The translations under genes and the position numbers were made by a program. A stretch of 32,000 bases of DNA from Archaeoglobus fulgidus DSM 4304 (lineage in GTDB: Archaea; Halobacteriota; Archaeoglobi; Archaeoglobales; Archaeoglobaceae). The first letter of the stretch is position 1, and each line of letters opens with the position of its first letter. Shown here one piece after another: positions 1,455 to 28,646 of the stretch. The stretch is from the NCBI RefSeq assembly GCF_000008665.1, contig NC_000917.1, forward strand, positions 1,230,001-1,262,000, given 5' to 3'. The notes beneath the pieces were generated by a model. The model saw only the letters and a program-made list of their open reading frames with translations. It did no database searches and had not been told where the DNA came from.

Positions 1455-1455
1455 A

Positions 1456-5635: not shown

Positions 5636-5653
5636 ATGAAGTGGGTGTTTAGT

Positions 5654-5678
5654 AGTGAAATAATTTAGGGATACTACA
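5654..5678. repeat. IS terminal inverted repeat (transposase 5' side)
   Basis: The reverse complement reads tgtagtatccctaaattatttcact, matching the other end at 20 of 25 positions. Confidence 0.75.
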
Positions 5679-9329: not shown

Positions 9330-10040
9330 TCAATCAACAATACCCATGCAGAGCTTCTCAAACTTCTCGTGCTCCAGAAGCTCGTTCGCAGTTCCGTTGA
9401 AAGCAACCCTACCGCTGACAAGCAGATAAGCATTATCGCTGATTTCTAAAGCTCTCTGCACATTCTGCTCGACCAGCAGGATTGTGAGCTTCAGGTCATC
9501 CCTCAGCTTCAGAATTCTGTCGAAGATTATCTCCGCAAACTTTGGCGATAGCTGAGCTGTTGGCTCATCCAGCATGAGAACGTTGGCCTTTCTCACCAGA
9601 GCTGTGGCCATTGCCAGCATCTGCCTCTCTCCACCGCTCAGCGTTCCAGCTTTCCTTTTCATGAAGGCCCTTAGCTCAGGGAAGGCATCGAGAGCTGCAT
9701 CAATCCTGTCCTTCACCTCTTCCTTGTCAACTGTGTAGGCGGCAATCTTCAGGTTCTCTTCAACAGTGAGGTTGGCGAAGACGTTGTCCGTCTGAGGGAG
9801 ATAGGCGATTCCCAGCTTTGTTCTTGTGTGGGGGGGCAGTGAGGTTATCTCTCCCCCGTTTAGGAAAACCTGTCCCGAGTGAACGGTGGCGAGGCCGAAA
9901 ATTGATTTGAGCAGCGTTGACTTTCCTGAGCCGTTAGGGCCAACTACCGCTGTAATTGAGTTCTTCTTTATGTCCGCATCCACATCGAAGAGGATGTGGA
10001 GTTCCTTATACCCCGCATTCAATTTCACTGTCCTGAGCAC
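9330..10040 (-). CDS. livF: Branched-chain amino-acid ABC transporter ATP-binding protein (LivF type)
   Basis: 236 aa. Walker [10 protein letters not shown], signature LSGGERQ, Walker B LMLDEP. Confidence 0.85.
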
Positions 10041-10779
10041 CGAGATACACCTCCACCACTTTCGGATTGTTCAGGATGTCCTCCTCCTTGCCCTCTGCAA
10101 TCACACTGCCGTTGGCCATAACGTATATGTGGTCTGTGTATTTAAGCACTATGTCCAGCCTGTGCTCGACGATGAGAAAGCTGACACCCATCTTTTTAAG
10201 CTCAACGAACCTCTCAAGCATGCTGTGAGACAGAACTGGATTTACTCCTGCTATTGGCTCGTCCATTATAAGCAGCTTTGCATCCTTCATCATCGCCCTC
10301 GCCACTTCCAGCAGCTTCAGCTGCCCGCCACTCAGGTTTTGAGCTTCACTGTCCCACAGGTGGTCGAGCTTCAGGAATTCTAAAATCCTGAAGGCTTTCT
10401 CAACTATTTCCTCCTCCTCTTTCAGCCATCTGCCGCTCACTGAGTGAAAGATGCGCTCTCCGTATCCTTCAGGAGCTATCAGCAAGTTTTCGAGCACGGT
10501 CATCTTTTTCAGCGGCTGGGGGATCTGAAAGGTCCTGACTATGCCCAGTCTGCTGATTTCGTGGGGAGGCTTGTTGGTTATGTCCTTTCCCTCAAAGAAA
10601 ACCTTGCCCTCATCCGCTCTGTAGAAACCAGAAACGGTGTTGATGAAGGTCGTCTTTCCGCTGCCGTTTGGGCCGATGACGAGCGTTATACTGCCCTTTT
10701 CCACACCAATATTGACTCTGTTCAAAGCCTTGAGACCGTCAAAAAATTTGGAAAGATTTTGAGTTTGTAAAATCTTCAT
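10006..10779 (-). CDS. livG: Branched-chain amino-acid ABC transporter ATP-binding protein (LivG type)
   Basis: Walker [23 protein letters not shown] and a C-terminal ...VVEVYLG. I place the start at the ATG at 10777-10779 (MKILQTQNL), which overlaps the livK stop as ATGA. The track ORF extends a further 17 codons upstream. Confidence 0.85.
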
Positions 10780-12053
10780 AGCCACTCTATCTTGTTTTCC
10801 GTGAACTTCCAAATGCCGGCAGTCTGCCACTTGCAGTCCTGAGTTACTTCGTAGATTGCGTAGTCACCGCTTGCTCTGTCATTCCACTCGTTGAGCTTTA
10901 TGTAACCCGAGACCGGCTTTACTCCGTACTCTCCCTTGCTGTACTTCTCCGTCACTTCGGGAATCTTGGCGTTCATAGCATCTGGATCGTAGCTGCCCTT
11001 CTCCTTAACGACCTCAATGTAGCTGAGAACCAGCACCCATGCCGCATCGTAGGCGTTTAGAGCGTACTGGTAGGGCGAATCTCCGAACCCTCTCTCCTTG
11101 TACTTCTTCGCCAGCTGCTCATAGGCTTCTCCTTTTGATTCGAAGAGCGTGCTCAGCATTCTGACTTTGCTCGCCTTGTCGCAGACTTCGAGCATTTTAT
11201 CGCTCAGCGCAGTACCATCGCAGCCCAGCCACAGGACGTTCAGCAGTGGGCTGTCATCCTTGGTCTGAGCGAGCATTGTCGCCGCCTCTTCGTAGCTGAA
11301 AGCTACAACGGCAACTTCTGAAGCGTCATACTTCTGGAGAGCGTCGTTCAGCTTGCTTTCGAGCGTCGCGATGTACGGGGAGAAGTCCGCCGGTGGTGGT
11401 GACGGATATTCTACCGGTTCGCCAACGATTTCAATTCCTGCTGCATCGAGCTTGGGTTTAATAGTCTCATAAAGCCCCTTACCCCAGTCGTTTCCGGTGT
11501 AGGTTATGATTACTGCCTTAATGCCAAGGTCCTTGAGTTCAGCCGTTATTGCGTCAGTCTGCAGGTCGTCAGTACCAACAAATCTGAAGATGTACTTCTT
11601 ATCTTCGGGCTTGGTAATTCCGAGGAGGCTGGGCAGCAATGTGGAAGACGGTGAGATTATTATTATTTTGTTTGACTGTACATACCCCTTTATATTGCTC
11701 ACTTCTCCGCTACCCATTGGCCCTATAACAAGGTTAATCCCTTTAGAATGCAGGCTCTGAATCTTTTCAAGAGCTATCTTTGGGTCAACCTTGGTGTCCT
11801 CGACGTAGAACTCCACAGTGTAGGGCAAACCCTTCTCCTCAAGATACGCGTTTATATCTTCCTTCGCAATTTCCAGCGTGTTCTTGATGCTGTTTCCGTA
11901 GGTTGTCAGCGGGCCGGAGAGGTCAATCATCACGCCTATTTTTATTGCTGTTTTCTGACCCTCCCCCGGCTTCTGCTCTGCTGGTTGTGCACAGAGCGCA
12001 AGCACTACAGCCATTAATACGGCCGCCAAAACTATTTTGTTCCCCCTTCGCAT
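10776..12053 (-). CDS. livK: Branched-chain amino-acid ABC transporter substrate-binding protein (LivK/BraC type, secreted or lipid-anchored)
   Basis: 425 aa. Signal sequence MRRGNKIVLAAVLMAVVLALCAQP with a Cys after the hydrophobic core. The mature part has a type-I periplasmic-binding fold pattern (IKIGVMIDLSGP...). Confidence 0.8.
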   Translation of the reverse strand: MRRGNKIVLAAVLMAVVLALCAQPAEQKPGEGQKTAIKIGVMIDLSGPLTTYGNSIKNTLEIAKEDINAYLEEKGLPYTVEFYVEDTKVDPKIALEKIQSLHSKGINLVIGPMGSGEVSNIKGYVQSNKIIIISPSSTLLPSLLGITKPEDKKYIFRFVGTDDLQTDAITAELKDLGIKAVIITYTGNDWGKGLYETIKPKLDAAGIEIVGEPVEYPSPPPADFSPYIATLESKLNDALQKYDASEVAVVAFSYEEAATMLAQTKDDSPLLNVLWLGCDGTALSDKMLEVCDKASKVRMLSTLFESKGEAYEQLAKKYKERGFGDSPYQYALNAYDAAWVLVLSYIEVVKEKGSYDPDAMNAKIPEVTEKYSKGEYGVKPVSGYIKLNEWNDRASGDYAIYEVTQDCKWQTAGIWKFTENKIEWL

Positions 12054-12068
12054 AGCGTTTATACAACG

Positions 12069-12080
12069 TTAAAATTTTAA
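12069..12080. promoter_or_regulatory. Perfect 12-bp AT palindrome ttaaaattttaa in the 50-bp divergent livK/livH intergenic region (candidate shared bidirectional TATA element)
   Basis: Read directly. Its centre lies about 22 nt from the livK ATG (12053) and about 30 nt from the livH ATG (12104). Confidence 0.4.
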
Positions 12081-12103
12081 AACTTTACTAAAGCTCGGAG
12101 TCT

Positions 12104-13042
12104 ATGGATACTATTTCATCTTTCGAGATCGTCAAAAATATTATCGAAGGGTCTCTCATATACTCCAACCTTCTCGTATTGCTGAGCATAGGGCTCACCA
12201 TTACCTACATAACTACGGCAGTTCCCAACTTCGCGCAGGGGAGCTTCGCAATATTTGGCTCATACGTGGCCCTGACCATGCTGAGGCTTTTTGGCATCCA
12301 CCCCTACGCTTCTTTGCCCGTTGCTTTTGCACTTGGCGGTTTGCTTGGCATTGCAACCTACATCCTCATCCTGCGCCCGCTCATCAGGCGCGGCGCCTCC
12401 GTAGTGATTTTGATGATTGCAACGCTGGCCTTTGACTTGATTCTCCTTGGCATTATTGGCTCATACTCTGAAACTCTCGCAACCATAACCAGAAAATCCG
12501 CCTCGAAGTTCACCTTTATCCCGACAGACTTCAAGATGTTTTCCTTCTCCGCCTCACTCTTCGTTTCTTCCCTGGTTATAATTATTGTTCTCGCATCACT
12601 CGTAACGCTGCTTTACAAAACAAAGTTCGGAGTTGCCCTGAGGGCCTCGATGGAGAACCCCGCTCTGGCTGAGGTGATGGGTGTCAATGTGGAGTACACG
12701 AGGCTCTTCTCGTGGTTTCTTTCAGGCGCTTTGGCTGCGATGGCGGGGTGTCTGCTGCCATTCAAGTACGAAATAGTTCCGAGCACGGGTGCAATCATCA
12801 TTGTCTCCATATTTGCTTCGAGCATTGTCGGGGGGCTTTCAACAATCTACGGAGCATTGCTCGGAGGCTACATAATAGGATTTTCGGAGACAAGTGTTAC
12901 TTACGCACTTTCCTCTGTGTTCGGAACAGGAGTTTTGCTCTACGGCAGAGTTGTTTCGTTGCTGGTGCTAGTCGCAACACTTATCCTCGCCCCCAAGGGC
13001 CTTACAGGTGTGAAGTGGAGGAGGTTGCTATGGAGCAGATAA
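12104..13042 (+). CDS. livH: Branched-chain amino-acid ABC transporter permease (LivH type)
   Basis: 312-aa polytopic membrane protein, divergent from livKGF. Confidence 0.8.
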   Translation: MDTISSFEIVKNIIEGSLIYSNLLVLLSIGLTITYITTAVPNFAQGSFAIFGSYVALTMLRLFGIHPYASLPVAFALGGLLGIATYILILRPLIRRGASVVILMIATLAFDLILLGIIGSYSETLATITRKSASKFTFIPTDFKMFSFSASLFVSSLVIIIVLASLVTLLYKTKFGVALRASMENPALAEVMGVNVEYTRLFSWFLSGALAAMAGCLLPFKYEIVPSTGAIIIVSIFASSIVGGLSTIYGALLGGYIIGFSETSVTYALSSVFGTGVLLYGRVVSLLVLVATLILAPKGLTGVKWRRLLWSR

Positions 13043-14061
13043 TACTCAACCTAGCACTATGGTTTGGTCTATACACAATCGTCAGCCTAAGCCTGAACAT
13101 AGAGTACGGATTCGCCGGAATCCCCAACTTTGGAAGAGCTTTAGCCGTGCTGATGGGAGCCTTTACGGTTGGAGGACTAGTCAACAGACTCCTGATGCTG
13201 GCCTTTAACATTCAGGGTGGGGAGCTCAAAGAAGCTACGGGCAGGCTGGCTTCCACTGTCAATGAGATTATAGCCAACAACCCGGCCTTCGGAATCGGGC
13301 TTATTCTGCTGTCCGTTGTTCTTGCGATGATAATAGGAGCCGTTACGGGAGCTCTCTTCATACTGCCGAGCGCGAAGCTCTCTGAAGACTATCTGGCCAT
13401 CACGCTGCTTGCAATAAGTGAGGTTGCTTTCATGGTTTTCTACTACCACACGGGGATAATCGGAGGCTATTACGGCGTTTCGGTTCCCGACGTCCTCGCC
13501 TTTCTGCCCGGACAGTACAGATCACACGCTTTTGCCGTGATAGCCCTCCTTTTTGCACTTTTGGTGTACATTTTTGTTGAGAGGCTGTTGAACTCCCCCT
13601 ACGGCAGACTTCTGAGGGCGATGAGGGAGAACGAGAGCGTCGTCGAGGCTATGGGCAAGAGCGTGATGACTCTGAGAATCAAAACCGCTGCAATCGGCTC
13701 ATCGATTGCGGCAATTGCAGGCGCTCTTTTCTCCCTTTACTCTGTCAACGTCATTGCAACGAGCTTTTCTAGGGTGGAGTGGACATTCTACCCCTTCCTG
13801 ATGGTTCTGCTTGGTGGGGCGGGTAACAACAGAGGTGTTGTGGTCGGAACCTTCACCTTCGTTCTTGTGAAGATATTGCTGACCATGTACAAGTACGAGA
13901 TAAAGAGCGCCCTGATGCTGCCCTTCGAGGCTGTTTGGCTGGAGTACATACTCTTCGGTCTGCTGATGTACTTCGTACTGCTTTACAGGCCAGAGGGGCT
14001 GATAAAGGAGAAACCAATATTTTCTAAAGTCATCCTGAAGAAGGTAAAAGGGAAGGCATGA
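13030..14061 (+). CDS. livM: Branched-chain amino-acid ABC transporter permease (LivM type)
   Basis: Start placed at the ATG at 13030 (MEQIILNLALWFGLYTIV), overlapping the livH stop. The 12712 start in the track is an out-of-frame read-through of livH. Confidence 0.8.
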   Translation: MEQIILNLALWFGLYTIVSLSLNIEYGFAGIPNFGRALAVLMGAFTVGGLVNRLLMLAFNIQGGELKEATGRLASTVNEIIANNPAFGIGLILLSVVLAMIIGAVTGALFILPSAKLSEDYLAITLLAISEVAFMVFYYHTGIIGGYYGVSVPDVLAFLPGQYRSHAFAVIALLFALLVYIFVERLLNSPYGRLLRAMRENESVVEAMGKSVMTLRIKTAAIGSSIAAIAGALFSLYSVNVIATSFSRVEWTFYPFLMVLLGGAGNNRGVVVGTFTFVLVKILLTMYKYEIKSALMLPFEAVWLEYILFGLLMYFVLLYRPEGLIKEKPIFSKVILKKVKGKA

Positions 14062-15874: not shown

Positions 15875-16809
15875 TTACTTGTGAATGAGGTCAGCAACAA
15901 CCTCAATCGCCTCTGCAAGCCTGTATGAAGGTCGGTTTATTATGTCCGCATCGACGACGTAAACCCTCCCTTCCTTCACGGCCTTAATTCCGCTCAACCT
16001 GTCATCGCTTACAACCCACTCGTAAACGACGTCTTTTCCTCCACCCATCCCCGAGCCGCTGCTGACAATAATCACGTCTGGATTGGCTGCAATCAAGTCC
16101 TCAACACTCACTGTTCTCCAGCCATCAAAGTTAAAGACGTTCTCACCTCCAGCAAGCCTTATCACCTCATCGATGAACGTGTTCTTCCCGCTAACCCATA
16201 TCGGGTCATACCAAAGGATGTGGGCAACCCTGACTTCGGCTTGTCCTTCATACTCTCTCTAACCTTCTCAATCCTCTCAAGCATTTCTTGAACAAGCTTC
16301 GTGGCGTTCTCCTTCTCTCCAGTAGCTACTCCAATCAGAATAATGTCCTTCATCACATCCTCAACGCTTTTCGGGTCAAAGGCTATCACCGTCAAGCCCA
16401 TCCTTCTCAGCGTTTCTATGTTCTCGATTCCGTTGCCGTATGTGGCAACGACAAGGTCGGGTTTGAGGGAAACCACCTTCTCTATATTTATCGTCGTGTA
16501 TCCGCCAATGCTCACAAGCTCTCCCTTCTTCTTTTTTTCCACCACCTCGGGCGGGTAATTGCAGTAGTCCGTCACTCCCACAACCCTATCACCCGCACCA
16601 ATAGCGAAGAGAATTTCCGTGTTGCTTGGAGCGAGAGACACTATTCTCTGCGGATTTCCCTCGTTAATGGTGTAGCCTGTATCATCCACCGGTGTGGCGT
16701 TGAGAATTTCCGTTAGGTTGAAAGATGTATGCTCCTCCGCCGGTTTGGATGAGCAGAGAGGAAGAATGGCGGCGATTAAAAGTAAAAGTAAGATTGTGTG
16801 CTTCCTCAT
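15875..16809 (-). pseudogene. btuF: Corrinoid/iron-complex ABC transporter substrate-binding protein (BtuF/FhuD class), split by a 1-nt frameshift
   Basis: N-terminal ORF 16162-16809 has a lipobox-like signal LLIAAILPLCSS and RIVSLAPSNTEILFAIGAGDRVVGVTDYCNYP. C-terminal ORF 15875-16165 reads IRLAGGENVF...NPDVIIV.... The adjacent frame reads straight through as ...KPK|VRVAHILWYDPIWVSGKNTFIDEVIRLAGG, so one base is missing near 16233-16236. Confidence 0.7.
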
Positions 16810-19226
16810 GTTTTTCTCCTTAAAAGGGCTGCAGTTAAAGCTAATGCCGCAATTGCTGCAGCTGATGAAAAGCCGGGAGTGGATTTTCTCTCAGCAGCTG
16901 CCGTAGTTGTGGTGGTAGCAGTTGTGGTGGTGGTTGTAGTAGATGCCGTTGCAGTAGTGGTGGTAGTAGCGGTGATTGCAGGAGCGGTAGCAACAGATGC
17001 GTTCACCTTAATCGGGTGCGGCTTTCCCAGCAATGCAATGATGGCTGAAACTGTCATGAAACCGGGATTGGAGGTCTGATACTTTGTGTACTTGAAGTAG
17101 CCGTCCTCCGTCTGAAGGCTAAGCAGATGCTCCACCACACTCGTGTTGTTCTTTGCCCACTCCATCGGATTGACTCCCGCGGCAACGAGGGCCTGTATCG
17201 TCCAAGCATCACTGGCAGCGTTGCTTGCTGAACTCCCGAAGTACCTCATCCCACCATCGTCGTTCTGTCCGGTCTTGAGGTAATCAAGGGCTTTTTTGAT
17301 CACATCCGAATCTCTTGGCTCCTCTGCAGCTATCAGAGCCTCAATCGCTGCTGCAGTGTCGTCGAAGTCGCTCTCCTCCCCCGCACTCCAGGCGAATCCC
17401 CCATCGACATCCTGCTGAGCTTTCAGCCACTCTGCAGATGCTGTTGTGTTCTCACCAACCGATGCCAGGGCGATGATTCCCCAGATGGTCTTGTAGGTGA
17501 AGTCCCCTATCTGCCCGTTTTCCTTCATGTAGGACTTCAGCTTTCCCACGAGGTCAACGCCTGCAAAGTTCCTCGGATTCTCGTTTGCGTAAACAAGGGC
17601 CAGTATGGTTCTCGCGTAGTCCTCAGCCCCCATCGTGCCCATCTCATCTTTCAGCCTTTCCCTCACAAAGTCGATGGGGCTTTTTCCGTTTTTAACCCAC
17701 TCATGGGGGTCCTGACCTGCAGCAACTATGGCCATGATTGCCCACGCGGTCGCAGAAATGCTGCTGTTCTCACCCGGATTCGCAAACCCACCATCATCGT
17801 TTTGAATCGTCCTGAGCCAGTCCAGGGCCTTCTGGATTCTCGCATCAGTTACATTGAGGGGGAAGCTGTCCCACTTGATGGTTATCGCAATAACGCTGAG
17901 GGATTCCGTTTCGGCGGAGTAGTAGAGGTAATTCTCATCCTTCCCGGTTTTCTCCGTCGGCAGCTCGAACCAGCTTCCGTTGTACTTCATGAGAACCACT
18001 TCCCTACCCTCGGCAACGTCTTTGGGAACTCTGAAATCAATAGTCGCCTTCAAAGAGTCGTTTGCCGTAATCTCAAACCACCTGTAAAACGTTCCGTAAA
18101 CCACACCCGGAGGGATGTGGGACTCTGCAATAACCACCTGCACAGGTTTTTCCGATTCGAAAGTCAGGCCGGTTATTGACAGGTTTGTCATTAGCTGTTC
18201 GGAAGGAATTACCTTCGTCTTACCGGGCTGAATGGTGATAACCTGCCCCGTGAGGTTCAGGTGAATTCCCGGCTCGCTGACGTTTACGGCCTTTGTGATG
18301 GTGTCAGAGAGGGCATCGTTGTCGAAGACTGTGAGGGAGACTTCATACGTTCCCGGCTCGGAGTAAATGTGAGTTACGGAAACCCCCCTTCCGCTTTTTC
18401 CGTCCCCGAAGTTCCAGATGTAATCCGTTATCTGGCCATCGTCAACCGACTTGGAGGCATTGAACACAACCTCCTCTCCCGCAACGGGGTTTGCTGGGGA
18501 GAACGTAAAGTCGGCCACCGGTGGAATCTTTGACGGCCAGATTATGCTGACGGTAATTTCATAGCTGTCCCCTATGTCTATGTATATCTTGAAGGGTGAG
18601 GAGTCAGGGGTGTCGCTCATGCTTCTGGAGAAGTACCAGACTATCCTATCTCCGGGATAGACTCTTTTCTCTGTAGCCGCAACTCCCGGCAACGGCTCGT
18701 TAGGGTAGTTGACCCAGTACATCCAGCCTGAAGTCTCCCCTATATCCCCCTTGCACAAATCCCTCACGCATTTTACGAAGATTCCCCAGTCGGTAAGTTC
18801 GGGAGTTATGGAGAATCCCATTATTTCCGATGCCTTTTTCAGCGCTCCGTAAGCGGTTCTCCACTCAACTTCTTTGCCAAGAACTTCGAACGTCCCGTAG
18901 GGAAGGTACTGCTTAGAAGTAGTGCCTCCTCCACCACTGCTGCCACTGCTGCAGGTTGTAACCTGCAGAGTTTTGGTGACCTGCTCATCTCCTGCCATGG
19001 CGATTACAACAAGCTCTCCAGGAACTCTCGGCTTGAAGTAAGCGGGATTTGATGGTGAAACTTCAGCGAAAACTGGTGTGCCTGAATTCATTCTGAAAAC
19101 AATTGTTGCTTCCTTGTCAGTTACAACTTCAACCGGTTTATCCACACACCCCCCGCTCACGTCGAGAGTGAGAGCGGAGGCGGGGGTCAGGATGAGAAGA
19201 ATAAATAAAGCCGCCAGCAGGCGCAT
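16806..19226 (-). CDS. Secreted multidomain surface protein: signal peptide, DUF4430-like (transcobalamin beta-domain-like) module, PKD domain, PGF-pre-PGF-like domain, prenyltransferase/terpene-cyclase-like alpha/alpha repeats, Thr-rich linker, PGF-CTERM anchor
   Basis: 806 aa.
- DUF4430-like: GWMYWVNYPNEPLPGVAATEKRVYPGDRIVWYF.
- PKD: FTFSPANPVAGEEVVFNASKSVDDGQITDYIWNFGDG...GTYEVSLTVFDNDALSD.
- Repeated L(K/R)xxQNDDGGF motifs.
- C-terminus TATTTTTATASTTTTTTTATTTTT...STPGFSSAAAIAALALTAALLRRKT. Confidence 0.8.
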   Translation of the reverse strand: MRLLAALFILLILTPASALTLDVSGGCVDKPVEVVTDKEATIVFRMNSGTPVFAEVSPSNPAYFKPRVPGELVVIAMAGDEQVTKTLQVTTCSSGSSGGGGTTSKQYLPYGTFEVLGKEVEWRTAYGALKKASEIMGFSITPELTDWGIFVKCVRDLCKGDIGETSGWMYWVNYPNEPLPGVAATEKRVYPGDRIVWYFSRSMSDTPDSSPFKIYIDIGDSYEITVSIIWPSKIPPVADFTFSPANPVAGEEVVFNASKSVDDGQITDYIWNFGDGKSGRGVSVTHIYSEPGTYEVSLTVFDNDALSDTITKAVNVSEPGIHLNLTGQVITIQPGKTKVIPSEQLMTNLSITGLTFESEKPVQVVIAESHIPPGVVYGTFYRWFEITANDSLKATIDFRVPKDVAEGREVVLMKYNGSWFELPTEKTGKDENYLYYSAETESLSVIAITIKWDSFPLNVTDARIQKALDWLRTIQNDDGGFANPGENSSISATAWAIMAIVAAGQDPHEWVKNGKSPIDFVRERLKDEMGTMGAEDYARTILALVYANENPRNFAGVDLVGKLKSYMKENGQIGDFTYKTIWGIIALASVGENTTASAEWLKAQQDVDGGFAWSAGEESDFDDTAAAIEALIAAEEPRDSDVIKKALDYLKTGQNDDGGMRYFGSSASNAASDAWTIQALVAAGVNPMEWAKNNTSVVEHLLSLQTEDGYFKYTKYQTSNPGFMTVSAIIALLGKPHPIKVNASVATAPAITATTTTTATASTTTTTTTATTTTTAAAERKSTPGFSSAAAIAALALTAALLRRKT

Positions 19227-21067
19227 CAGCTCACCTCACAGCTTGCCGGGCCATAGAGGTGAATCAGGTTGGCAGGATACTCGCTGAACCTGTAAACTCC
19301 TGCATAGAGGCTGTAAGTCCCCTGATCAGCAAGCTGCGGGATGTGGATGAGCACCGGAACTCTCAGCTCCTCTCCCGCATTGAGGCGGAAGGTTGAGATG
19401 CCAGCTATCGCCTCCCCCTGCTCACCCACACCGCTCACAACGACGACATACCAGTCAGTAGAGGCAGAGGTTACATTCACCCACGCCGTTATGTTCCCTC
19501 CCCTGTTCCCGTTTGAAAGCTCAAGAGATGAGATACCTGCTGGTTTTACATCAGCATTAATTTTCAGCAGAATTAGGCAGCTGTTGAGGCTGCTTCCGTC
19601 TCCGTAGCAGTAATATACAGTTTCCTTCTGGTTTAGGTTGTATCGGTCAGCTCCAACAGATATTTGCCCGGTTTCGTTCCATACACTCCAGTAAATCCAG
19701 TTACCGTCAATTTGATCGGTTCCGAGGCCCATGATGGTTTTTATGAAGAAACCGTACTGGGAATACCAGCTGTCATCAAGACTTACCTCAAACCAGACCT
19801 TTGCTCCATTCACCGTATGATTTTCAGACTCATAAAGCGCTCCGAGAGCCGTTGTTCTGTTAACTTCATAGCTGTTTCCGTTGACGAGAACCTCGAACTT
19901 TCCGGGAATCAGCGTAACGTTAAACTCGAAGCTTCCAGATGTCTCGAAGCAGTAAACGTATCCGCTGTCGGCCCCGATGAAAAGCTTATTTTCAGCTATG
20001 AACGGTGACGACATGATGTTGTAGTAGCTCCCCGAAGGGGGAGATAAGCGGTAATACCACAGCACTTCACCGCTGAGCGCATCAACAGCATAAAGCGTTC
20101 CCTCAGGTGTGTTTGTGGCGAAGTAAACAACACCGCCCGCGACAGCAGGCGACGAGTCAATCTTTCCGTTAACAGCAGTCTCCCATTTCTTCGTGCCGTC
20201 GCTGGCGTTAAAGCAGTAGAGCTTACCATCTGATCCGATGTAAACATTCCCGTAAGCAACGGCCGCCGTTGACATCGTTCCGCTAAAGGCTACACTCCAG
20301 GCTTCGGTTCCGTCGAGATTCACGGCATAAAGTTTGGTTTCTGTGGCAACGTAAACTCTCTGTCCATCTGTTGAGGGAGAGTTGGTGATTTTGCCATCAA
20401 CCGGAAACTTCCACTGCTCCACTCCGCTCTCATTCACGGCAACCAGAAGGCCGTTCCCGCTTTCATTGCCTGCGAAGAACACCAGACCTTTAAATGCTGA
20501 TGGCGAGGTGTAGGGACCAATCTCCCCTCCTGTGGTGTAACGCCACACCACATTGCCGTCAGAATCGATCTTCCAGAGCGTTCCGTTGGAGAACGTTGTA
20601 ACGTAAACCGACCCGTTGTAAACGAGCGGTGATGATGCAATGCCCCACCACAAGGGGGAGCTTTCAAGCTTTACCGCCTTGACAATATCGCCACTTGCCG
20701 CATCTACATAATACAGCATTCCGGTAATGTCACCCACAACCAGCAGGTTTCCGAAGACAGCTACGCTGGATGCGCCGGAGATTGTCGCGTTTCTCCACTC
20801 CACGCTGCCGGTTGTGGCGTTGAGAGAGTAAAGTCCGGGCTGCCAGTCACCCCAGCCGAACCAGTTTGTGACGTAAATGTGACCGTTGTAGTAAACAGGT
20901 GACGCTCCCACAAGCCCGGTCAGCTGAGTTTTCCAGGCGAGGTGTGGGATAATCTCCCCACTCGCCGTGAAATTCCCTGTCCTCTGCACGTCCCCGTGAA
21001 ACGTGGTGGCACTCGCTGCTGCAGTAAGCATTATTAACGTGAGTGAAATCAATGCAAATTTCCTCAT
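19226..21067 (-). CDS. Secreted PQQ-like beta-propeller protein with a C-terminal DUF4430-like module and a CARDB/Ig-like domain
   Basis: 613 aa. Signal peptide MRKFALISLTLIMLTAAASA. Repeated blades (SPVYYNGHIYV, SPLVYNGSVYV, SSPAVAGGVVYF, SSPFIAENKLFIG). The DUF4430-like stretch is GFFIKTIMGLGTDQIDGNWIYWSVWNETGQISVGADRYNLNQKETVYYCYG. Its stop overlaps the start of the next gene. Confidence 0.8.
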   Translation of the reverse strand: MRKFALISLTLIMLTAAASATTFHGDVQRTGNFTASGEIIPHLAWKTQLTGLVGASPVYYNGHIYVTNWFGWGDWQPGLYSLNATTGSVEWRNATISGASSVAVFGNLLVVGDITGMLYYVDAASGDIVKAVKLESSPLWWGIASSPLVYNGSVYVTTFSNGTLWKIDSDGNVVWRYTTGGEIGPYTSPSAFKGLVFFAGNESGNGLLVAVNESGVEQWKFPVDGKITNSPSTDGQRVYVATETKLYAVNLDGTEAWSVAFSGTMSTAAVAYGNVYIGSDGKLYCFNASDGTKKWETAVNGKIDSSPAVAGGVVYFATNTPEGTLYAVDALSGEVLWYYRLSPPSGSYYNIMSSPFIAENKLFIGADSGYVYCFETSGSFEFNVTLIPGKFEVLVNGNSYEVNRTTALGALYESENHTVNGAKVWFEVSLDDSWYSQYGFFIKTIMGLGTDQIDGNWIYWSVWNETGQISVGADRYNLNQKETVYYCYGDGSSLNSCLILLKINADVKPAGISSLELSNGNRGGNITAWVNVTSASTDWYVVVVSGVGEQGEAIAGISTFRLNAGEELRVPVLIHIPQLADQGTYSLYAGVYRFSEYPANLIHLYGPASCEVS

Positions 21068-21089
21068 GCTCCAAAAATTCGGATTTCAA

Positions 21090-21098
21090 TTTATAAAG
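21090..21098 (-). promoter_or_regulatory. TATA-like box (tttataaa on the minus strand) about 25-30 nt upstream of the beta-propeller gene ATG
   Basis: The 85-bp AT-rich gap 21068-21152 is the only sizeable intergenic gap in the 15.9-25.3 kb minus-strand block. Confidence 0.4.
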
Positions 21099-21152
21099 TT
21101 TTCCAGATAACTTGATACAAAATAAAGCATATTTGATTTGCTACCACGGAGC

Positions 21153-21719
21153 TTACCACCTCGCCAGGCTGTCCTTCACCGCCTCCCCAGCACATCTCCA
21201 GAGCTTCTGCCCAACTTCACTCGCAGGACCGCAGTACCTGTGATACCCCCCCTTCTGAGTGCATAGCACCACAACCGCGTCGGTGTTCGTGCCCGTGAAG
21301 TTGTGCCCCTCTTCCAGCAAAGCCTTCGTTTTTGCCTCAGTTGCAGTTATAATGGCGTTGAGCATCGCAGCCCTGCTCATCCTGCACTCGAAAACCGCTA
21401 TTATGTTTATCGTCCCTACCCTCTCATTTGGATTCATGACTCCCGCAGTGGCGAACACCGTCACCTCTCCGCAGCCTTTCACGCTGAGCTTCTCGATGGG
21501 AACGGAGGTGAGCAGGCCAAAGTAGGATTTGAGCCCGTATCCCCTCGCAACCTTTCTGAGGTACTCTGCAGGCTCCATCGAGTGGAATTCCTCGCTTACA
21601 GTGTGGTTGAACGCATGTCTCACTCTCTTCCACCCTCCCAGCAACCCCGTGCTGACGCCGAAGAAGTCTCCCGAAACCACCAGAGTTCTTTCGTCAACCC
21701 AGTAATTTTCGTACGGCAT
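21153..21719 (-). CDS. cbiZ: Adenosylcobinamide amidohydrolase (CbiZ family)
   Basis: 188 aa. Stretches VSTGLLGGW, GTINIIAV, AMLNAIITATEAKTKALLE and FTGTNTDAVVV fit my recollection of the CbiZ family. Located in a btuCD context. Confidence 0.65.
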   Translation of the reverse strand: MPYENYWVDERTLVVSGDFFGVSTGLLGGWKRVRHAFNHTVSEEFHSMEPAEYLRKVARGYGLKSYFGLLTSVPIEKLSVKGCGEVTVFATAGVMNPNERVGTINIIAVFECRMSRAAMLNAIITATEAKTKALLEEGHNFTGTNTDAVVVLCTQKGGYHRYCGPASEVGQKLWRCAGEAVKDSLARW

Positions 21720-22911
21720 CCAGAACCTCCTCTTCCCTTTTCACAACCACCGCTTTTTCCAGAATTTTAATATAAAGCTCCTCCGCCTCCTTTCCGGCAA
21801 AATTTCGTTCTTTAAAGGGAGTTCTGTCAACCACAACGAGCTTGCCGAGGTTTGCTGCATGCAATGCTGCAAGAAGATTCCTGTAGTTCCCCTTTCCAAC
21901 GCTCAGGTTCGCCAGCACAACCGCATCGCTCTTCTCAATCATCTCTATGTTTTTCTGATGCGAAGAGTCGCTTATCGGTGAAAATGGGGCTTCGTCAACA
22001 ACCTCTCCCAGCTCAACCGCGTTCTCCCAGTCGGAATCAAGGATGTTCACAACCCCCGCGGAAACCTTGTATCCTACCTCCCTGAGCATGTGCATGATTG
22101 CTCCACCACTCCCCCCTCCGCATATGACGTGAACCCTCCTCAAACCGTTCGGAACCTTCAGCTTCGGGGCGATGTAAACCCCCCTTCCGTATTTTCTGAC
22201 AACAACGTCAGCCCCAAAAACATCCCTTATGCTCTCCTCCGTAATGACATCCTCCGGCCTTCCCGCGTAGACAACAACACCGTCCTTTACCATCAGAATT
22301 TTGGTTGCAAAGGAGGATGCGAGGTTTATGTCGTGTATTGCAACTATTGCAGCCTTTCCCTGCTCCACCTTGCTCCTTACAATCTCCATTATCTCAATCT
22401 GCGCCGCTATGTCTAAATGGGCTGTTGGCTCGTCGAGCAGCATTATTTCGGGCTGCTGGGCAAAAACCCTCGCAAGCATAACCTTCTGCCTCTCTCCACC
22501 GCTGAGCTCCGAGAAAAGCCTGTCGGCCATTTTCTCCATCCCAACCTCCTTCAGAGCTTCCATCGCTGCTCTGTAATCCTCCTCTTTAGGCCTCTTTAAC
22601 CCGCTCAGATAGGGAGTTCTGCCGAGCATCACGACATCAATGACCTTTAAATTCGTCATCGGTGTGTCCTGCGGAAGAAAGCCGAGCTTTCTGGCAGCTT
22701 CCTCAGCACTGCCAACTTCCCTGCCGTCAAGCAAAACCACTCCCTTAAGGGGCTTGAGCATTCCGAATATCGTTCTCAGCATCGTGGTCTTGCCGCTCCC
22801 GTTGGGGCCGAGCAGGGCGAGAAGCTCTCCCTCCCCCACCTCAAAGGTTACGTCCTTCAGCACCTCTCTGCTCCCCAGCTTTACGCTGACTCCCTTCACC
22901 ACGAGCCTCAT
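21694..22911 (-). CDS. btuD: Corrinoid/iron-complex ABC transporter ATP-binding protein (BtuD/FepC class) fused to a ~150-aa C-terminal domain of unknown function
   Basis: 405 aa. Walker [27 protein letters not shown]. The extra C-terminal part starts RVHVICGGGSGGAIMHMLREVGYKVSAGVV..., which resembles a Rossmann-like glycine loop. Confidence 0.8.
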   Translation of the reverse strand: MRLVVKGVSVKLGSREVLKDVTFEVGEGELLALLGPNGSGKTTMLRTIFGMLKPLKGVVLLDGREVGSAEEAARKLGFLPQDTPMTNLKVIDVVMLGRTPYLSGLKRPKEEDYRAAMEALKEVGMEKMADRLFSELSGGERQKVMLARVFAQQPEIMLLDEPTAHLDIAAQIEIMEIVRSKVEQGKAAIVAIHDINLASSFATKILMVKDGVVVYAGRPEDVITEESIRDVFGADVVVRKYGRGVYIAPKLKVPNGLRRVHVICGGGSGGAIMHMLREVGYKVSAGVVNILDSDWENAVELGEVVDEAPFSPISDSSHQKNIEMIEKSDAVVLANLSVGKGNYRNLLAALHAANLGKLVVVDRTPFKERNFAGKEAEELYIKILEKAVVVKREEEVLDAVRKLLG

Positions 22912-23894
22912 ACCGACCTCCTCATCAGCAGGTAGAGGAAAAACGGCCCTCCGAGCATGGCCGTTATCGCCCCCACAGGCAGCTCACCGCTCGTTGAAAT
23001 TCTGGCAACGACGTCGATGAGCGGCATGAAAGCCGTGGAGAGGAATATTGTGGAGGGGAGAAGCTTCTGGTGCTCCTCTCCCACCAGTATCCTCATTGTG
23101 TGGGGAACGATTATGCCAACAAAGCCTATGACACCGCTGATCGCAACGGTTGTTGAAGTAAGAAGAGCAACGACAGCTATCAGGGACTTCCTGAAGCTTT
23201 CGACGTTTATCCCCACCGCTGCAGCGTGCTCATCGCCGAGCAAAAGGGCGTTAAGGTTCCATGAGGTAATCAGGAGGTAGAGCAGCCCGGCAATGGTAAT
23301 GGGCAGGGCGAAAAGCACCTCTTCAACGAAGGGGTTCGAGAAGCTTCCCATGAGCCAGAAAATCACTTTGTGCATGCTTTGAGCGGAGAAGTAAATTAGA
23401 ACGGAAGTTAAACCGGAGAAGAAGCTTGCTATGGCAACCCCGGCAAGAAGAATTGCGTACGTCTGATCCCGAAATTTTGAGGATGAGCCAATTAGATAAA
23501 CGACGTATGCGGTAATAAGAGCGGAGAAAAAGGCCATTCCGATTCTTGAGTAAATAGTCTCAATGCCAAGAGCAACCGAAAGGGCAGCGCCAACACTCGC
23601 CCCGCTCGCCACCCCAAGAACGTAGGGCTCGGCAAGTGGATTTCTGAACAGAGCCTGCATGGCACAGCCGGATGCAGAGAGAGACGCTCCGGCTATCACC
23701 GCCATCAGATACCTCGGCAGTCTGTAGCTGAGAACGATTTTTGTTGCAGTCTCATCGGCATTTCCCGTAATAACCTGAAAGAGGTATGTATAGCCCCCGC
23801 TCCCCACTCCAAGGGAGAGCAGCAGAGCGAGAAGATTCAGTGCGAGCAGGGCTGCTACAACTTTACCCTTCACGAAGTCAAAAGAATTGGTCAT
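22908..23894 (-). CDS. btuC: Corrinoid/iron-complex ABC transporter permease (FecCD/BtuC family)
   Basis: 328-aa polytopic protein. Typical FecCD stretches (RNPLAEPYVLGVASGASVGAA, ...GAITAMLGGPFFLYLLMRR). ATGA-type overlap with btuD. Confidence 0.85.
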   Translation of the reverse strand: MTNSFDFVKGKVVAALLALNLLALLLSLGVGSGGYTYLFQVITGNADETATKIVLSYRLPRYLMAVIAGASLSASGCAMQALFRNPLAEPYVLGVASGASVGAALSVALGIETIYSRIGMAFFSALITAYVVYLIGSSSKFRDQTYAILLAGVAIASFFSGLTSVLIYFSAQSMHKVIFWLMGSFSNPFVEEVLFALPITIAGLLYLLITSWNLNALLLGDEHAAAVGINVESFRKSLIAVVALLTSTTVAISGVIGFVGIIVPHTMRILVGEEHQKLLPSTIFLSTAFMPLIDVVARISTSGELPVGAITAMLGGPFFLYLLMRRSV

Positions 23895-25317: not shown

Positions 25318-25333
25318 CTTTAAAAATATTTAT
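25318..25333 (-). promoter_or_regulatory. TATA-like element (aaatatttttaaag on the minus strand) about 20-30 nt upstream of the PUA gene ATG, abutting the stop codon of the Res-like helicase gene
   Basis: Read directly in the 32-bp gap 25301-25332. Confidence 0.4.
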
Positions 25334-27660
25334 CAGTTACCACTCCCCACGGATTCAGCCATACTTACGTAAAATTTCTGAACGTAATCCTTTAAGACTG
25401 CCAAAACAATTTCTTGGAACTTTCTCAGCCCATCAAACGACTTTATCTTTAGTTTTCCGTTGTTATTCTCAATGCCTATCCCATCCATCTCGCTCAAAAA
25501 CAACCGGTACTTGTTTGATTTGGCTATTCGCCTTAATGTGTCAGCATCCACAATGAGGTTGTAGAATCCTCTTGTGATTTTGAAGTTTATGATTTCCGAG
25601 CGCACGTATTGCCAATCGATTAGCTCGAAATACTCTTCAGGAACCTCTACTGGATTGTCCGTTACCGTTTCAGCAGCTCCAACCTTCAATCCGTGCGCTA
25701 CAGTAATTTTAGGCCTCAAATCAATCTTAATCGTCTCCAGAATATCTTCCTCAAATCTGAGCTTCACGGGATAATCAAAACCATCCTTTGTTGTGTAAAT
25801 TCCATCTTCCCGTTTTTCGGGACGGTTGAGCCTAATTGCTAACTCCTCGTAATCCACTTCCTCATTTGATATCGCCCTCAGGAATGCGTTAATGTAGTCG
25901 GCGTTTAGCCCAAAAATGAAAAGCGTCTGCAGAACCTTGAGTTTGTAGTCCGGATTTTCCTCCCTTTTCAAAGAGAAGTTCTTCCCCTTCAGCCTTACAC
26001 CCCTTCCAAAGAGCTGGATGATCTGAGGCCCCTCCCCCTTCCCCATGTTGATTAAAACCATGTTAGAAACTCTCCATGAGTTCCAGCCCTCCACAAATTT
26101 TTTCGAACCAATTAGTATATTTATCGAAGAATTGTTTTCGTTAACTTCGAAAAACAAGGAATGGCTGAAATGGTCCTCTTTGACATCCATCTCTGAAATC
26201 AACTTTTTCAGTGTGCCTACATCACCAACATTAACGACGCCGAAATAGCTTTCAGCCGTGGAAATCTTGAGCCCCAACTCCCCATCGGCATTATTTATTT
26301 CGTAAACCTCCAGCCTCCCCTTACCGCCAAATACTTTCCGATAAACGTTTTCCACAAGAGAATCGACGTCGAGATTTCTTATGAACTCGAACTTTCCCTC
26401 AAAAATATCGTTCCCGTTGGTGTCCAAAAGTCCAGACTCGCCTTTCAGGATTTTCGCAGCGTTCTCTTTCAGATACCTTTCATCCCTTGCTATTCTTTCC
26501 AGATACTGAATTACCCTAACTACATCTGAATTTATTCCCTTTCCAGCGACCCTGCTACCAACAAAAACCCACAGGGGTTTCTCTATGCTGTAAGCTCTCA
26601 GCTCATCCCTGTATCTTTCAAAAACTTCCAGTTGCTCGTAAAAAGACAGCAATGCTGCAGTAAGTAGCAAATCTCTCTGCGTTTCTGTGTAGGCGTCTTC
26701 TCTTATGTTGTAAACGTAGAAGTCCTTTCCGTATCCGTCTGCGTAGAAGTACTTGTAGGAGTAATCGAAAATGATTGCCTTCGCGTATTCCTCAAGCAAA
26801 TCCCTGTTCTTACCCACAACCTGCCCGAAAGTTGCGGAGTACTCAAATATAAACCCGTTCTTTCCTATCTCCTCCCTCAGCTTTTTCCACTTCTGCTCCT
26901 CCGACTTCTGCCCCTTATGTCCCTCGTCGATAAACACCAGGTTTTTACCGTCAAAATAAGAAACGTCAACAGTCACACCTCTCCCCCTCTTCTCTTCAGT
27001 CAGCTTGTGGATGTCTATTACCAGAATCTCTCCGTCTTTCGTTTTCAGGTTGTCAACATTCCCATCGTACAGCTTGCATGGAATGCCGCTCAGCCTCAAT
27101 TCCTCGTAATGCTGCCTGGACAGTCCTTCGTTGGGTGTTATCAGAATTACGTTGTCCCAGCGGTTCTTCGAATATTTTAACATTTGCCAGTAGTTTATGT
27201 GCATTACAAGGGTCTTTCCGCTTCCCGTCGCCATCCAGAAGGCAAGCTTCCTGAGGTCCTCTTCTGTGAAAGGGGCTACTTTCTTTTTGCTTTTTTTGCT
27301 GTAGTTATCCAGAAACGTGTTGAGGTCGCTTAGAAATCGACTTCTGTCGTTGTAATACGCATCCAGAAAGATTTCTGTGAACAAAACAGCTAGATACTGG
27401 AAGTATTTGAGGTTGAAGCTCTGCTGTCTTCTATTTCGCCTTAATCTCTCAACATACTCCCTTATTGCCTCATCGTATTTTATTAAGTCCCTTTCCCAAT
27501 CCGGCCTTAATCGGATTAGGAGGTCAGCAAAATAGCTTCTACCGGAAGCATCGTAGCCCTCCAGCGCGTCTTTCAGCTTCTCTCTCAGCTCGTTGAAATG
27601 ATTAATACCGAAAAGGTTGAGAAAGTATTTGTTCAGAATCAAATACTGCTCAAGCCTCAT
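25333..27660 (-). CDS. Type III restriction Res-like SF2 helicase/translocase (no obvious nuclease domain)
   Basis: Walker A WMATGSGKT (27211-27231), DEGH (26917-26928), SAT, KFVEGWNSWRV and QLFGRGVRL. I prefer the ATG at 27658-27660 (MRLEQYLILN), which has GGAGGG 7 nt upstream, to the TTG at 27738 used in the track. Confidence 0.8.
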   Translation of the reverse strand: MRLEQYLILNKYFLNLFGINHFNELREKLKDALEGYDASGRSYFADLLIRLRPDWERDLIKYDEAIREYVERLRRNRRQQSFNLKYFQYLAVLFTEIFLDAYYNDRSRFLSDLNTFLDNYSKKSKKKVAPFTEEDLRKLAFWMATGSGKTLVMHINYWQMLKYSKNRWDNVILITPNEGLSRQHYEELRLSGIPCKLYDGNVDNLKTKDGEILVIDIHKLTEEKRGRGVTVDVSYFDGKNLVFIDEGHKGQKSEEQKWKKLREEIGKNGFIFEYSATFGQVVGKNRDLLEEYAKAIIFDYSYKYFYADGYGKDFYVYNIREDAYTETQRDLLLTAALLSFYEQLEVFERYRDELRAYSIEKPLWVFVGSRVAGKGINSDVVRVIQYLERIARDERYLKENAAKILKGESGLLDTNGNDIFEGKFEFIRNLDVDSLVENVYRKVFGGKGRLEVYEINNADGELGLKISTAESYFGVVNVGDVGTLKKLISEMDVKEDHFSHSLFFEVNENNSSINILIGSKKFVEGWNSWRVSNMVLINMGKGEGPQIIQLFGRGVRLKGKNFSLKREENPDYKLKVLQTLFIFGLNADYINAFLRAISNEEVDYEELAIRLNRPEKREDGIYTTKDGFDYPVKLRFEEDILETIKIDLRPKITVAHGLKVGAAETVTDNPVEVPEEYFELIDWQYVRSEIINFKITRGFYNLIVDADTLRRIAKSNKYRLFLSEMDGIGIENNNGKLKIKSFDGLRKFQEIVLAVLKDYVQKFYVSMAESVGSGN

Positions 27661-27752
27661 TTCATACCCTCCAGTACTATATCTCAGGAGCTTGAGCTTT
27701 CTCTTAAATTTTTCCCCAAAAATTGTGAAAACAGACAAGGAGAGTCGAGGCG

Positions 27753-28630: not shown

Positions 28631-28646
28631 GCTACCATCTATTATA

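Follow-up and report, generated by a model that had tools for sequence, protein, structure and literature searches.

Gene organization of the locus

The stretch of DNA analysed here (the window) comprises 32,000 nucleotides (nt) of the Archaeoglobus fulgidus DSM 4304 genome (NC_000917.1, positions 1,230,001 to 1,262,000 of the forward strand). Two adjacent genes in this window, encoding large, predicted secreted proteins of 613 and 806 amino acids (aa), were analysed as candidate components of an extracellular corrinoid-capture module. Both belong to a single co-directional cluster on the minus strand, in which btuC, btuD and cbiZ are followed by an 85-nt gap, the 613-aa open reading frame (ORF), the 806-aa ORF and a btuF-type gene. 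The features of the cluster, in gene order, are:

22908..23894, minus strand: btuC, permease of a type II ATP-binding cassette (ABC) importer (FecCD, E 2e-85)
21694..22911, minus strand: btuD, ATPase with C-terminal extension (NCBIfam NF007082, E 2e-89, aa 2-368)
21153..21719, minus strand: cbiZ, adenosylcobinamide amidohydrolase of archaeal cobinamide salvage (PF01955, E 7e-43)
21068..21152, minus strand: AT-rich conserved intergenic region, probable internal promoter for 613-806-btuF (TATA-like TTTATAAA at 21090-21097)
19226..21067, minus strand: 613-aa secreted protein (ORF, profile matches, AlphaFold2 (AF2) model)
16806..19226, minus strand: 806-aa secreted protein with a putative C-terminal anchor (ORF, profile matches, AF2 model)
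15875..16809, minus strand: btuF-type substrate-binding protein gene, frameshifted (two Peripla_BP_2 fragments)

Both ORFs were found on the minus strand where a first-pass annotation, made from the sequence alone, had placed them, and the FecCD, NF007082 and PF01955 matches confirm its placement of the pair downstream of btuC, btuD and cbiZ. The overlapping junctions could also be read as described: the stop codon of the 613-aa ORF and the start codon of the 806-aa ORF share 1 nt (TGATG, context gcTGATGcgc), and the stop of the 806-aa ORF overlaps the btuF start by 4 nt (ATGA). Further upstream, btuD and btuC overlap by 4 nt, and the cbiZ and btuD genes overlap as well. The gene order is identical in other A. 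fulgidus genomes, and the 613-aa protein shows 100% identity to A. fulgidus WP_086975916.1.

Alignment of the cbiZ-613 gap with nine Archaeoglobus relatives revealed conserved blocks, namely a block GCAAATCAAA...CTTTA and a GGAAAA-TTTATAAA element located about 26 nt 5' of the 613 ATG. The gap is probably an internal promoter for 613-806-btuF, perhaps giving rise to a leaderless transcript; a regulator site is also conceivable. An Rfam scan of the window identified neither a riboswitch nor any other known RNA element.

Domain architecture of the 806-aa protein

The following domains could be assigned to the 806-aa protein:

18951..19169, minus strand: N-terminal immunoglobulin-like (Ig-like) beta-sandwich, aa 20-92, followed by a Gly/Ser linker (AF2; no Pfam match)
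18531..18914, minus strand: DUF4430/SLBB domain, aa 105-232 (PF14478, Pfam core aa 124-200)
18276..18524, minus strand: PKD domain, aa 235-317 (PF18911, match aa 235-315, E 1e-19)
17874..18269, minus strand: PGF-pre-PGF beta-sandwich, aa 320-451 (TIGR04213, match aa 371-449; all-beta in the AF2 model)
17013..17864, minus strand: alpha/alpha toroid, aa 455-738 (PF13243 and PF00432, above gathering score)
16884..17003, minus strand: Thr-rich linker, aa 742-781 (20 Thr in 40 residues)
16809..16883, minus strand: PGF-CTERM-like sorting signal (PGF, hydrophobic helix, RRKT; read from the sequence)

An AF2 model built on 62 homologues reached a mean predicted local distance difference test (pLDDT) score of 86, with each domain modelled confidently. 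The strands of the N-terminal sandwich cover aa 21-90 (pLDDT about 90), while the linker at aa 94-104 has a pLDDT below 50. The DUF4430 domain expected from the first-pass annotation was recovered by PF14478 with 27.5 bits (33.3 for the domain alone; gathering score 23.8), and the same model matched all 62 homologues. The permuted order that it had described, with PKD and PGF-pre-PGF domains inserted between the DUF4430 domain and the toroid, was likewise borne out. TIGR04213 scored 42 bits against a cut-off of 28. The PKD domain is present in only 27 of the 62 homologues and is therefore dispensable for the family.

The toroid (aa 458-740) was matched by PF13243 (SQHop_cyclase, 60.5 bits) and PF00432 (Prenyltrans, 54.4 bits). 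Of the prenyltransferase-like repeats, given as four or five in the first-pass annotation, Q-x-x-D-G-G-F could be recognised clearly four times (aa 471, 601, 650 and 701). The toroid is the only one in the protein, and no partner subunit is encoded nearby. The pattern S-D-x-D-D-T, which reads S-D-F-D-D-T at aa 619-624 (window 17355-17372), is invariant in the 62 archaeal homologues and also in the four toroid proteins of the riboswitch-linked loci described below. It may line a ligand site. The best NCBIfam match of the toroid (aa 622-765) was the 'SCO2321 family membrane protein', at 101 bits against a cut-off of 300; this Streptomyces family may be another branch of such exported toroids.

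The Thr-rich stalk of the first-pass annotation was found as 20 Thr residues in aa 742-781; it has a pLDDT of about 30 and may be O-glycosylated. For the C-terminal tail 'PGFSSAAAIAALALTAALLRRKT', the tripartite PGF-CTERM layout could be seen as claimed and the Pfam model matched 9 of the 62 homologues at E <= 0.01 (best 1e-8), but the protein's own scores lie under the curated cut-offs (PF18204, 16.9 versus 18.8; TIGR04126, 19.8 versus 24.5). A PGF-CTERM-type sorting signal is plausible. No archaeosortase A gene (artA) is located within the 32-kb window. An extracellular location of both secreted proteins is supported by their predicted signal peptides, by 12 and 14 N-X-S/T sequons, and by the Thr-rich stalk and PGF tail.

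Domain architecture of the 613-aa protein

The 613-aa protein consists of a signal peptide, a PQQ/BamB-type beta-propeller, a DUF4430/SLBB domain and a C-terminal Ig-like sandwich. The signal is of the Sec type without a lipobox, and the protein has no membrane anchor. Its domains are:

19940..20995, minus strand: beta-propeller, about aa 25-376 (PQQ_2, E 4e-37; BamB TIGR03300, E 2e-35, under cut-off)
19562..19936, minus strand: DUF4430/SLBB domain (transcobalamin beta-domain-like), about aa 378-502 (hhalign, PF14478 matches of orthologues, AF2)
19229..19555, minus strand: Ig-like beta-sandwich, about aa 505-613 (AF2 model, Foldseek)

The PQQ_2 match agrees with the PQQ-like propeller predicted in the first-pass annotation. 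A Pfam search with the last 231 aa returned no match at E <= 10, including none to DUF4430, yet the DUF4430 domain also claimed for this protein is well supported by its family: PF14478 was matched by 53 of 67 orthologues, and hhalign aligned the family region aa 382-502 to the DUF4430 region of the 806 family with a probability of 99.9% (E 2e-31). By this profile comparison, the DUF4430 domains of the two families are paralogues. The observation on the two ORFs and their domains was thereby confirmed in every part.

The C-terminal 240 residues were modelled by AF2 with a pLDDT of 93.5, as a region of beta-grasp-like strand/helix order followed by an Ig-like sandwich. Foldseek matched this model to Ig-like and carbohydrate-binding sandwiches, such as the Wzt carbohydrate-binding domain, with target-normalised template modelling scores (TM-scores) of 0.55-0.7; these matches swamped the search, which was uninformative on the DUF4430 part. 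A profile of the family C-terminus gave one weak match only among the PDB sequences (3u7z, E 0.24). The SLBB superfamily was defined by Burroughs, Balaji, Iyer and Aravind in 2007, with a beta-grasp core carrying an extra beta-hairpin after the helix as the feature of its transcobalamin-like clade (PMC1796856). In the AF2 models of both proteins, the DUF4430 regions run strand-strand-helix, extra strands, and three more strands, an order compatible with such a core.

Some further characteristics of the 613 family were observed. Its C-terminus (window 19229-19243) ends in a conserved C-E-V-S with an invariant penultimate Val, which could be involved in disulfide formation, processing or attachment. 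One orthologue (an A2 member) has two tandem DUF4430 domains ahead of the Ig-like domain, and several homologues carry the JGI annotation 'cobaltochelatase CobN'.

Transporter proteins and the btuF frameshift

Corrinoid models were the best ligand-specific matches for BtuC, BtuD and BtuF. The best NCBIfam match of BtuC was the vitamin B12 permease NF007081 (272 bits), with siderophore permeases at 203 bits, and that of BtuD was the corrinoid ABC transporter ATPase NF007082. Intact A. fulgidus BtuF scored 122.6 bits with the BtuF model, 75.5 with heme IsdE and at most 55.6 with siderophore models. The iron-siderophore importer that the first-pass annotation had considered as a possible objection to its own proposal is thus outscored by the corrinoid models, as is a heme importer. 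The role of CbiZ in archaeal cobinamide salvage has been described (PMC3541065). The C-terminal extension of BtuD, of about 150 residues (window 21694-22200), corresponds to PF27219, the MJ0874 domain; it lies inside the NF007082 coverage, and ordinary BtuD and FecE ATPases do not have it. PF27219 is also recorded on the identical btuD gene in locus L086.

The btuF gene, whose product starts with a lipobox-like signal, reads as two ORFs (215 and 96 aa) because 1 nt is missing after position 16236, as seen in alignment with four relatives. One base has been lost from a short A run within window 16230-16240 (CCGA-AGTC, where the relatives have GAAAGT or GAGGGT). The first-pass annotation was correct in coupling a btuF-type gene to the 806-aa ORF via the ATGA overlap, but the frameshift had gone unnoticed. 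The split is shared by A. fulgidus assembly GCA_900069765.1, while three other A. fulgidus assemblies (311 aa) and the four relatives carry an uninterrupted gene. A programmed or species-typical split was considered and rejected: just a single base is missing, and the intact 311-aa gene is carried by other A. fulgidus genomes. In A. fulgidus DSM 8774 (CP006577.1, locus L087, 4156-5374) the lesion affects btuD (291 + 133 aa) and not btuF, and the called btuC is shortened to 282 aa. These differing transporter lesions among A. fulgidus assemblies may reflect sequencing or assembly errors, or real and ongoing decay.

Synteny and gene fusions across archaea

A scan of one genome per species yielded 80 loci, 72 archaeal and 8 bacterial according to their record labels. 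The archaeal loci belong to Archaeoglobi, Methanomicrobiales and Methanosarcinales, and their neighbouring genes were identified by tblastn with the window proteins. A BtuF-type gene lies directly downstream of the 806 homologue, on the same strand, in 58 of the 64 archaeal loci with enough sequence, and a 613 homologue lies directly upstream in at least 46 of 53. Two other genes were found less often, within 10 kb (btuC in 27 and cbiZ in 13 of the 72 archaeal loci), so that the conserved core is 613-806-btuF, which fits the promoter-like block ahead of 613. The co-occurrence with btuFCD and cbiZ, which the first-pass annotation had suggested surveying, supports its reading. The complete order btuC-btuD-cbiZ-613-806-btuF was present in 11 Archaeoglobus-type loci, and the overlapping junctions are retained in A. 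sulfaticallidus.

In nine Methanomicrobiales loci, the toroid and the Peripla_BP_2 binding protein are encoded as one ORF, for example the 651-aa protein of Methanocalculus chunghsingensis. All of the best 120 database matches to this protein combine toroid and binding protein (120/120). Hosts of such fusions include Methanoculleus, Methanofollis, Methanoplanus, Methanogenium, Methanocorpusculum and others, with complete genomes among them. Further combinations are a DUF4430 + toroid + binding-protein fusion (P0338), a propeller + toroid + binding-protein fusion (P0269) and a propeller + DUF4430 + toroid protein followed by a BtuF gene (P0204), while in one Methanosarcinales locus the beta and alpha parts are located on separate genes. 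These fusions argue that the four parts work as a single physical unit with the binding protein.

In locus L055, a Diphthami_syn_2 (DUF71) gene lies between two BtuF genes and beside a toroid gene; one subgroup of DUF71 is connected with B12 salvage in the literature (PMC3541065). The contig of L055 is labelled Desulfobacteria bacterium, and its gene content and C-terminal anchors look archaeal, like those of the Methanosarcinales locus L054. It may be mis-binned.

Cobalamin riboswitch operons in loci labelled bacterial

A cobalamin riboswitch (RF00174, 77-126 bits) was found on the same strand, ahead of an uninterrupted operon, in four of the eight loci labelled bacterial. Pfam annotation covered the operon of locus L078 and, from L079 and L083, three DUF4430 genes located upstream. 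The L078 operon encodes DUF4430 lipoproteins, CbiQ, a duplicated ABC ATPase, a toroid + SLH protein, an energy-coupling factor (ECF) S component, a DUF4430 + SLH protein and a second toroid protein, which matched PF01122 (Cobalamin_bind) above the gathering score. The toroid proteins of the four riboswitch loci show 37-40% identity to the toroid of the 806-aa protein. Judged from these sequences, cobalamin riboswitch control of the homologues is a link to corrinoids that is independent of the archaea.

Relation to animal B12 carriers and to cyclases

DUF4430 is the C-terminal domain of transcobalamins (PMC4350170; PMC1796856). A profile of the 806-family DUF4430 domain was searched against the PDB (177,635 sequences), and its best match was the beta domain of haptocorrin (4kki, E 7.7e-4); the TCN2 beta domain was non-significant in the same search (E = 1). 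The beta domains of the 806-aa and 613-aa proteins are, on profile evidence, homologous to the beta domain of transcobalamin, intrinsic factor and haptocorrin. A profile of the 806 toroid matched squalene-hopene cyclase (E 5e-25), drimenyl diphosphate synthase and prenyltransferase beta subunits (E 5e-25 to 1e-21 for the cyclase and synthase). Foldseek ranked the single-domain cyclases 8pak and 8paj (TM-score 0.6, target-normalised) and the geranylgeranyltransferase (GGTase) beta subunit at the top for the toroid of the AF2 model. With the full model, the best 50 PDB matches listed were PKD domains, complement and alpha-2-macroglobulin (Ig + TED toroid), squalene-hopene cyclases and prenyltransferases.

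PF01122 did not match the 806-aa protein of the window, and the PF01122-positive protein of L078, searched against the PDB sequences, gave no match to a transcobalamin alpha domain. The transcobalamin likeness described in the first-pass annotation consequently holds for the beta domain, which is homologous, but for the alpha domain only at the level of the fold class, its sequence being of squalene-cyclase/prenyltransferase type. The profile searches support both the DUF4430 and the toroid assignments as such. Homology is limited to the beta domain, the alpha part shares only a fold class and the domain order is reversed; the archaeal proteins are not members of the eukaryotic carrier family.

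Proposed function and alternative explanations

The coupling to BtuF, which is often covalent, the linkage to cbiZ and the riboswitches together favour corrinoids. It appears fairly probable that the 613 and 806 genes encode an extracellular accessory module that captures a corrinoid (cobamide or cobinamide) and feeds BtuF. The corrinoid-scavenging role put forward in the first-pass annotation thus gains support from the BtuF synteny, the fusions, the riboswitches, the haptocorrin match and the transporter scores, and the computational checks proposed there all turned out favourably. In such a system, both proteins would be exported via their Sec signal peptides. The 806-aa protein would be held at the cell surface by its Thr-rich stalk and PGF-type C-terminal anchor, and the 613-aa protein, which has no anchor, would presumably associate with it or with the surface layer (S-layer). 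One or both DUF4430/SLBB beta domains would catch free corrinoid, and the toroid would close over it, giving a sandwich of the alpha/beta kind seen in the animal carriers but built from parts that are permuted or lie on separate chains. The propeller, PKD and Ig-like domains could act as spacers or scaffolds. The next recipient of the corrinoid would be the BtuF-type lipoprotein, whose gene overlaps the 806 ORF at its downstream end, and BtuCD would take the ligand over from BtuF, after which CbiZ would turn imported adenosylcobinamide into adenosylcobyric acid that re-enters cofactor synthesis.

A more specific possibility, which we put forward tentatively, is a transcobalamin-like clamp, split and permuted, made up of the DUF4430 domains and the toroid; by docking on the BtuF-type protein, it would load this protein with corrinoid. 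Bloch et al. (2017) reportedly found that the transcobalamin beta domain binds cobalamin and cobinamide in isolation, and Fedosov et al. (2004) reportedly observed that intrinsic factor, cut into two fragments, comes together again around cobalamin, which makes it plausible that an alpha/beta clamp can be split or permuted.

Several points weigh against a corrinoid-capturing module. Literature searches found no binding data for any prokaryotic member of the family, and they returned no corrinoid-binding study of prokaryotic members, in agreement with the first-pass statement that no experimental characterisation was known. The scores of BtuC, BtuD and BtuF (272, 300 and 123 bits) all lie under the NCBIfam equivalog cut-offs (461, 537 and 234). 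Since btuF is frameshifted in the source strain, the pathway may be impaired there, unless the lesion is an assembly error. The toroid profile matched no transcobalamin alpha domain among the PDB sequences at E <= 10, PF01122 was touched by just 2 of the 62 homologues of the 806-aa protein, and weakly (E 0.003), and transcobalamin was not among the best 50 PDB matches listed by Foldseek for the full 806 model. On the last point, the beta domain precedes the alpha domain in the 806-aa protein, so that a sequential aligner is unable to match both transcobalamin domains at once. The same model has a predicted TM-score (pTM) of 0.59 and gives no confident inter-domain geometry. Archaea with these proteins often have anaerobic B12 synthesis, and a different metabolite was suggested for them (PMC1796856). 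Finally, the sole experimental claim for related split alpha/beta proteins, Lsa1839/1840 of Lactobacillus sakei, concerns heme uptake.

The last two points lead to an unlikely alternative, in which the module captures another tetrapyrrole or iron chelate (heme, F430, a sirohydrochlorin-type compound or an iron-siderophore) and the importer merely resembles BtuFCD. Peripla_BP_2/FecCD systems carry heme and siderophores too, the matches to corrinoid-specific models all lie under the equivalog cut-offs, and the family is common in methanogens and lineages related to anaerobic methanotrophs (ANME), which are F430 users. The heme assignment in L. sakei, where deletion of the ECF operon with its split transcobalamin alpha- and beta-like proteins was reported to affect heme uptake, is however based on docking and on deletion of the whole operon. 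All three transporter proteins score clearly higher on corrinoid than on heme or siderophore models, and the beta-domain profile matches haptocorrin. The genetic context also speaks against another ligand: cbiZ is located in the cluster here as well as in the 13 archaeal loci counted above, the DUF71 gene of L055 belongs to a family with a subgroup linked to B12 salvage, and homologues in four loci labelled bacterial are under cobalamin riboswitches.

The 613-aa and 806-aa proteins could also be ligand-free envelope scaffolds that tether BtuF in the S-layer space, with DUF4430 and toroid as protein- or glycan-binding modules, which seems slightly less probable still. The many adhesion-type domains (PKD, PGF-pre-PGF, Ig-like sandwiches, BamB-like propeller) would suit this role, tethering was proposed for such accessory domains by Burroughs et al. 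(PMC1796856), and the toroid-BtuF fusions are readable as anchoring because the fused proteins bear a C-terminal membrane anchor. BtuF proteins are nevertheless self-anchored, by a lipobox-like signal here and by C-terminal anchors in Methanocalculus, and the core kept across archaea and bacteria is DUF4430 plus toroid and not the adhesion domains, as illustrated by the patchy occurrence of PKD (27/62). The beta domain contacts the ligand in the animal carriers (PMC1796856), and ligand capture agrees better than tethering with riboswitch control and with operons that contain several DUF4430 paralogues. Very improbable, finally, is an enzymatic role of the toroid as a single-domain class II terpene cyclase or prenyltransferase-like protein acting on isoprenoid lipids of the envelope, with an incidental linkage to btuF. 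It could explain the strong similarity to squalene-hopene cyclase and drimenyl diphosphate synthase and the Foldseek matches to the cyclases 8pak and 8paj, which have about 360 residues. The invariant S-D-x-D-D-T, moreover, resembles DxDDTA, the acid motif that characterises class II terpene cyclases. This motif occupies, however, the repeat position of S-x-x-x-T/D-A-W in the other toroid repeats and may therefore be structural or ligand-binding. With its signal peptide, the 806-aa protein is predicted to be exported and anchored outside the cell. An incidental linkage is also difficult to reconcile with the 58 of 64 loci with adjacent btuF, reaching gene fusion, and with the B12 riboswitches ahead of homologues in loci labelled bacterial.

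As cofactors that are both scarce and shared, corrinoids shape anaerobic communities, and the extracellular competition for them by archaea and Gram-positives is little understood. If corrinoid capture by the 613-aa and 806-aa proteins is correct, it would amount to a capture layer ahead of BtuFCD and ECF importers that is widespread (Archaeoglobi, Methanomicrobiales, Methanosarcinales, Syntrophomonas, Clostridia), and would settle the question of the archaeal ligand left by the 2007 in-silico study. The proteins would also be simple, thermostable models in which the alpha/beta clamp known from transcobalamin and intrinsic factor, and the way it evolved, could be studied, with the toroid-BtuF fusion proteins as a ready-made complex for structural work. 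Should the clamp proposal hold, the module would be the first accessory factor described that loads a binding protein belonging to a type II ABC importer. In archaea and Gram-positives it would parallel the extracellular B12 relay of Bacteroides, it would be related, on the prokaryotic side, to the B12 carriers of animals, and the Methanomicrobiales toroid-BtuF fusions would be the covalent form of the clamp-BtuF complex.

Other genes in the window

The remaining parts of the window contain a Liv-type amino-acid ABC transporter (9330-14061) and, within 759-4198, 4736-5758 and 25333-31556, a NiFe hydrogenase cluster (small and large subunits and cytochrome b), an IS element (rve integrase) and a DNA methylase with a ResIII helicase. 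The last pair looks like a restriction-modification system.

Comparison with known systems

The animal carriers (TCN2, intrinsic factor and TCN1) share with the archaeal proteins the homologous beta domain, the combination of an alpha/alpha toroid with a beta-grasp domain and secretion, and the mechanism proposed here likewise sandwiches the ligand between toroid and beta domain. In the animal carriers, however, alpha is followed by beta via a short linker, whereas the order in the 806-aa protein is reversed, with PKD and PGF-pre-PGF domains inserted, and the archaeal module has a second beta domain on a separate propeller protein. Their alpha barrel belongs to PF01122, while the 806 toroid is of squalene-cyclase/prenyltransferase type. 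The animal carriers feed an endocytosis receptor; the 806-aa protein would be membrane-anchored and feed an ABC importer.

BtuG, BtuH and BtuJ of Bacteroides, which feed BtuB, are comparable as surface-anchored, high-affinity corrinoid binders that are encoded beside the transporter and form an extracellular relay. BtuG2 is also a beta-propeller, namely a seven-bladed lipoprotein that caps a TonB-dependent transporter (PMC10404256). The parallel to BtuG drawn in the first-pass annotation stands for the propeller fold class but not beyond it: the propeller of the 613-aa protein is of PQQ_2/BamB type, Pfam and NCBIfam scans gave no BtuG family match, and no homology to the Bacteroides binders was detected. 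The archaeal system also differs in having no outer membrane or BtuB, with the binding protein of an ABC importer as recipient. An occurrence of DUF4430 in Bacteroides BtuH was considered and dropped; the main text of the BtuH paper mentions neither transcobalamin nor Pfam, and it reports that the B12-binding domain of BtuH2 has low structural similarity to deposited structures. The archaeal corrinoid salvage system of Woodson and Escalante-Semerena, with BtuFCD of Halobacterium and with CbiZ (summarised in PMC3541065), has the same core as the window, which contains BtuC, a BtuD with the long extension (NF007082), a BtuF-type protein and CbiZ. No extracellular accessory proteins were found described for that characterised system, whereas here the 613 and 806 genes sit between cbiZ and btuF.

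Also close to the archaeal module are the prokaryotic SLBB proteins described in 2007, for which a role in scavenging B12 or B12 precursors was predicted (PMC1796856). That study, which cited an Archaeoglobus protein, covered SLBB-toroid combinations of both domain orders, fusions to Ig domains or propellers, and operons with paired paralogues. The riboswitch-controlled ECF operons in loci labelled bacterial and the L. sakei proteins belong to the same group, in which DUF4430/SLBB and toroid are paired in either order or on separate chains, as in the archaeal module; signal peptides, surface anchors, a second SLBB paralogue in the operon and propeller or Ig fusions are shared as well. The bacterial systems differ by their ECF-type transporters (CbiQ/CbiO plus S component) and their SLH or LPXTG anchors, where the archaeal module has coupling to BtuF and BtuCD, the toroid-BtuF fusion, cbiZ nearby and a PGF-type anchor. 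The idea of B12 scavenging by this domain family is thus not new, having been predicted in 2007 (PMC1796856). New here are the tight and often covalent archaeal coupling to BtuF-type proteins, the linkage to cbiZ and the riboswitch evidence.

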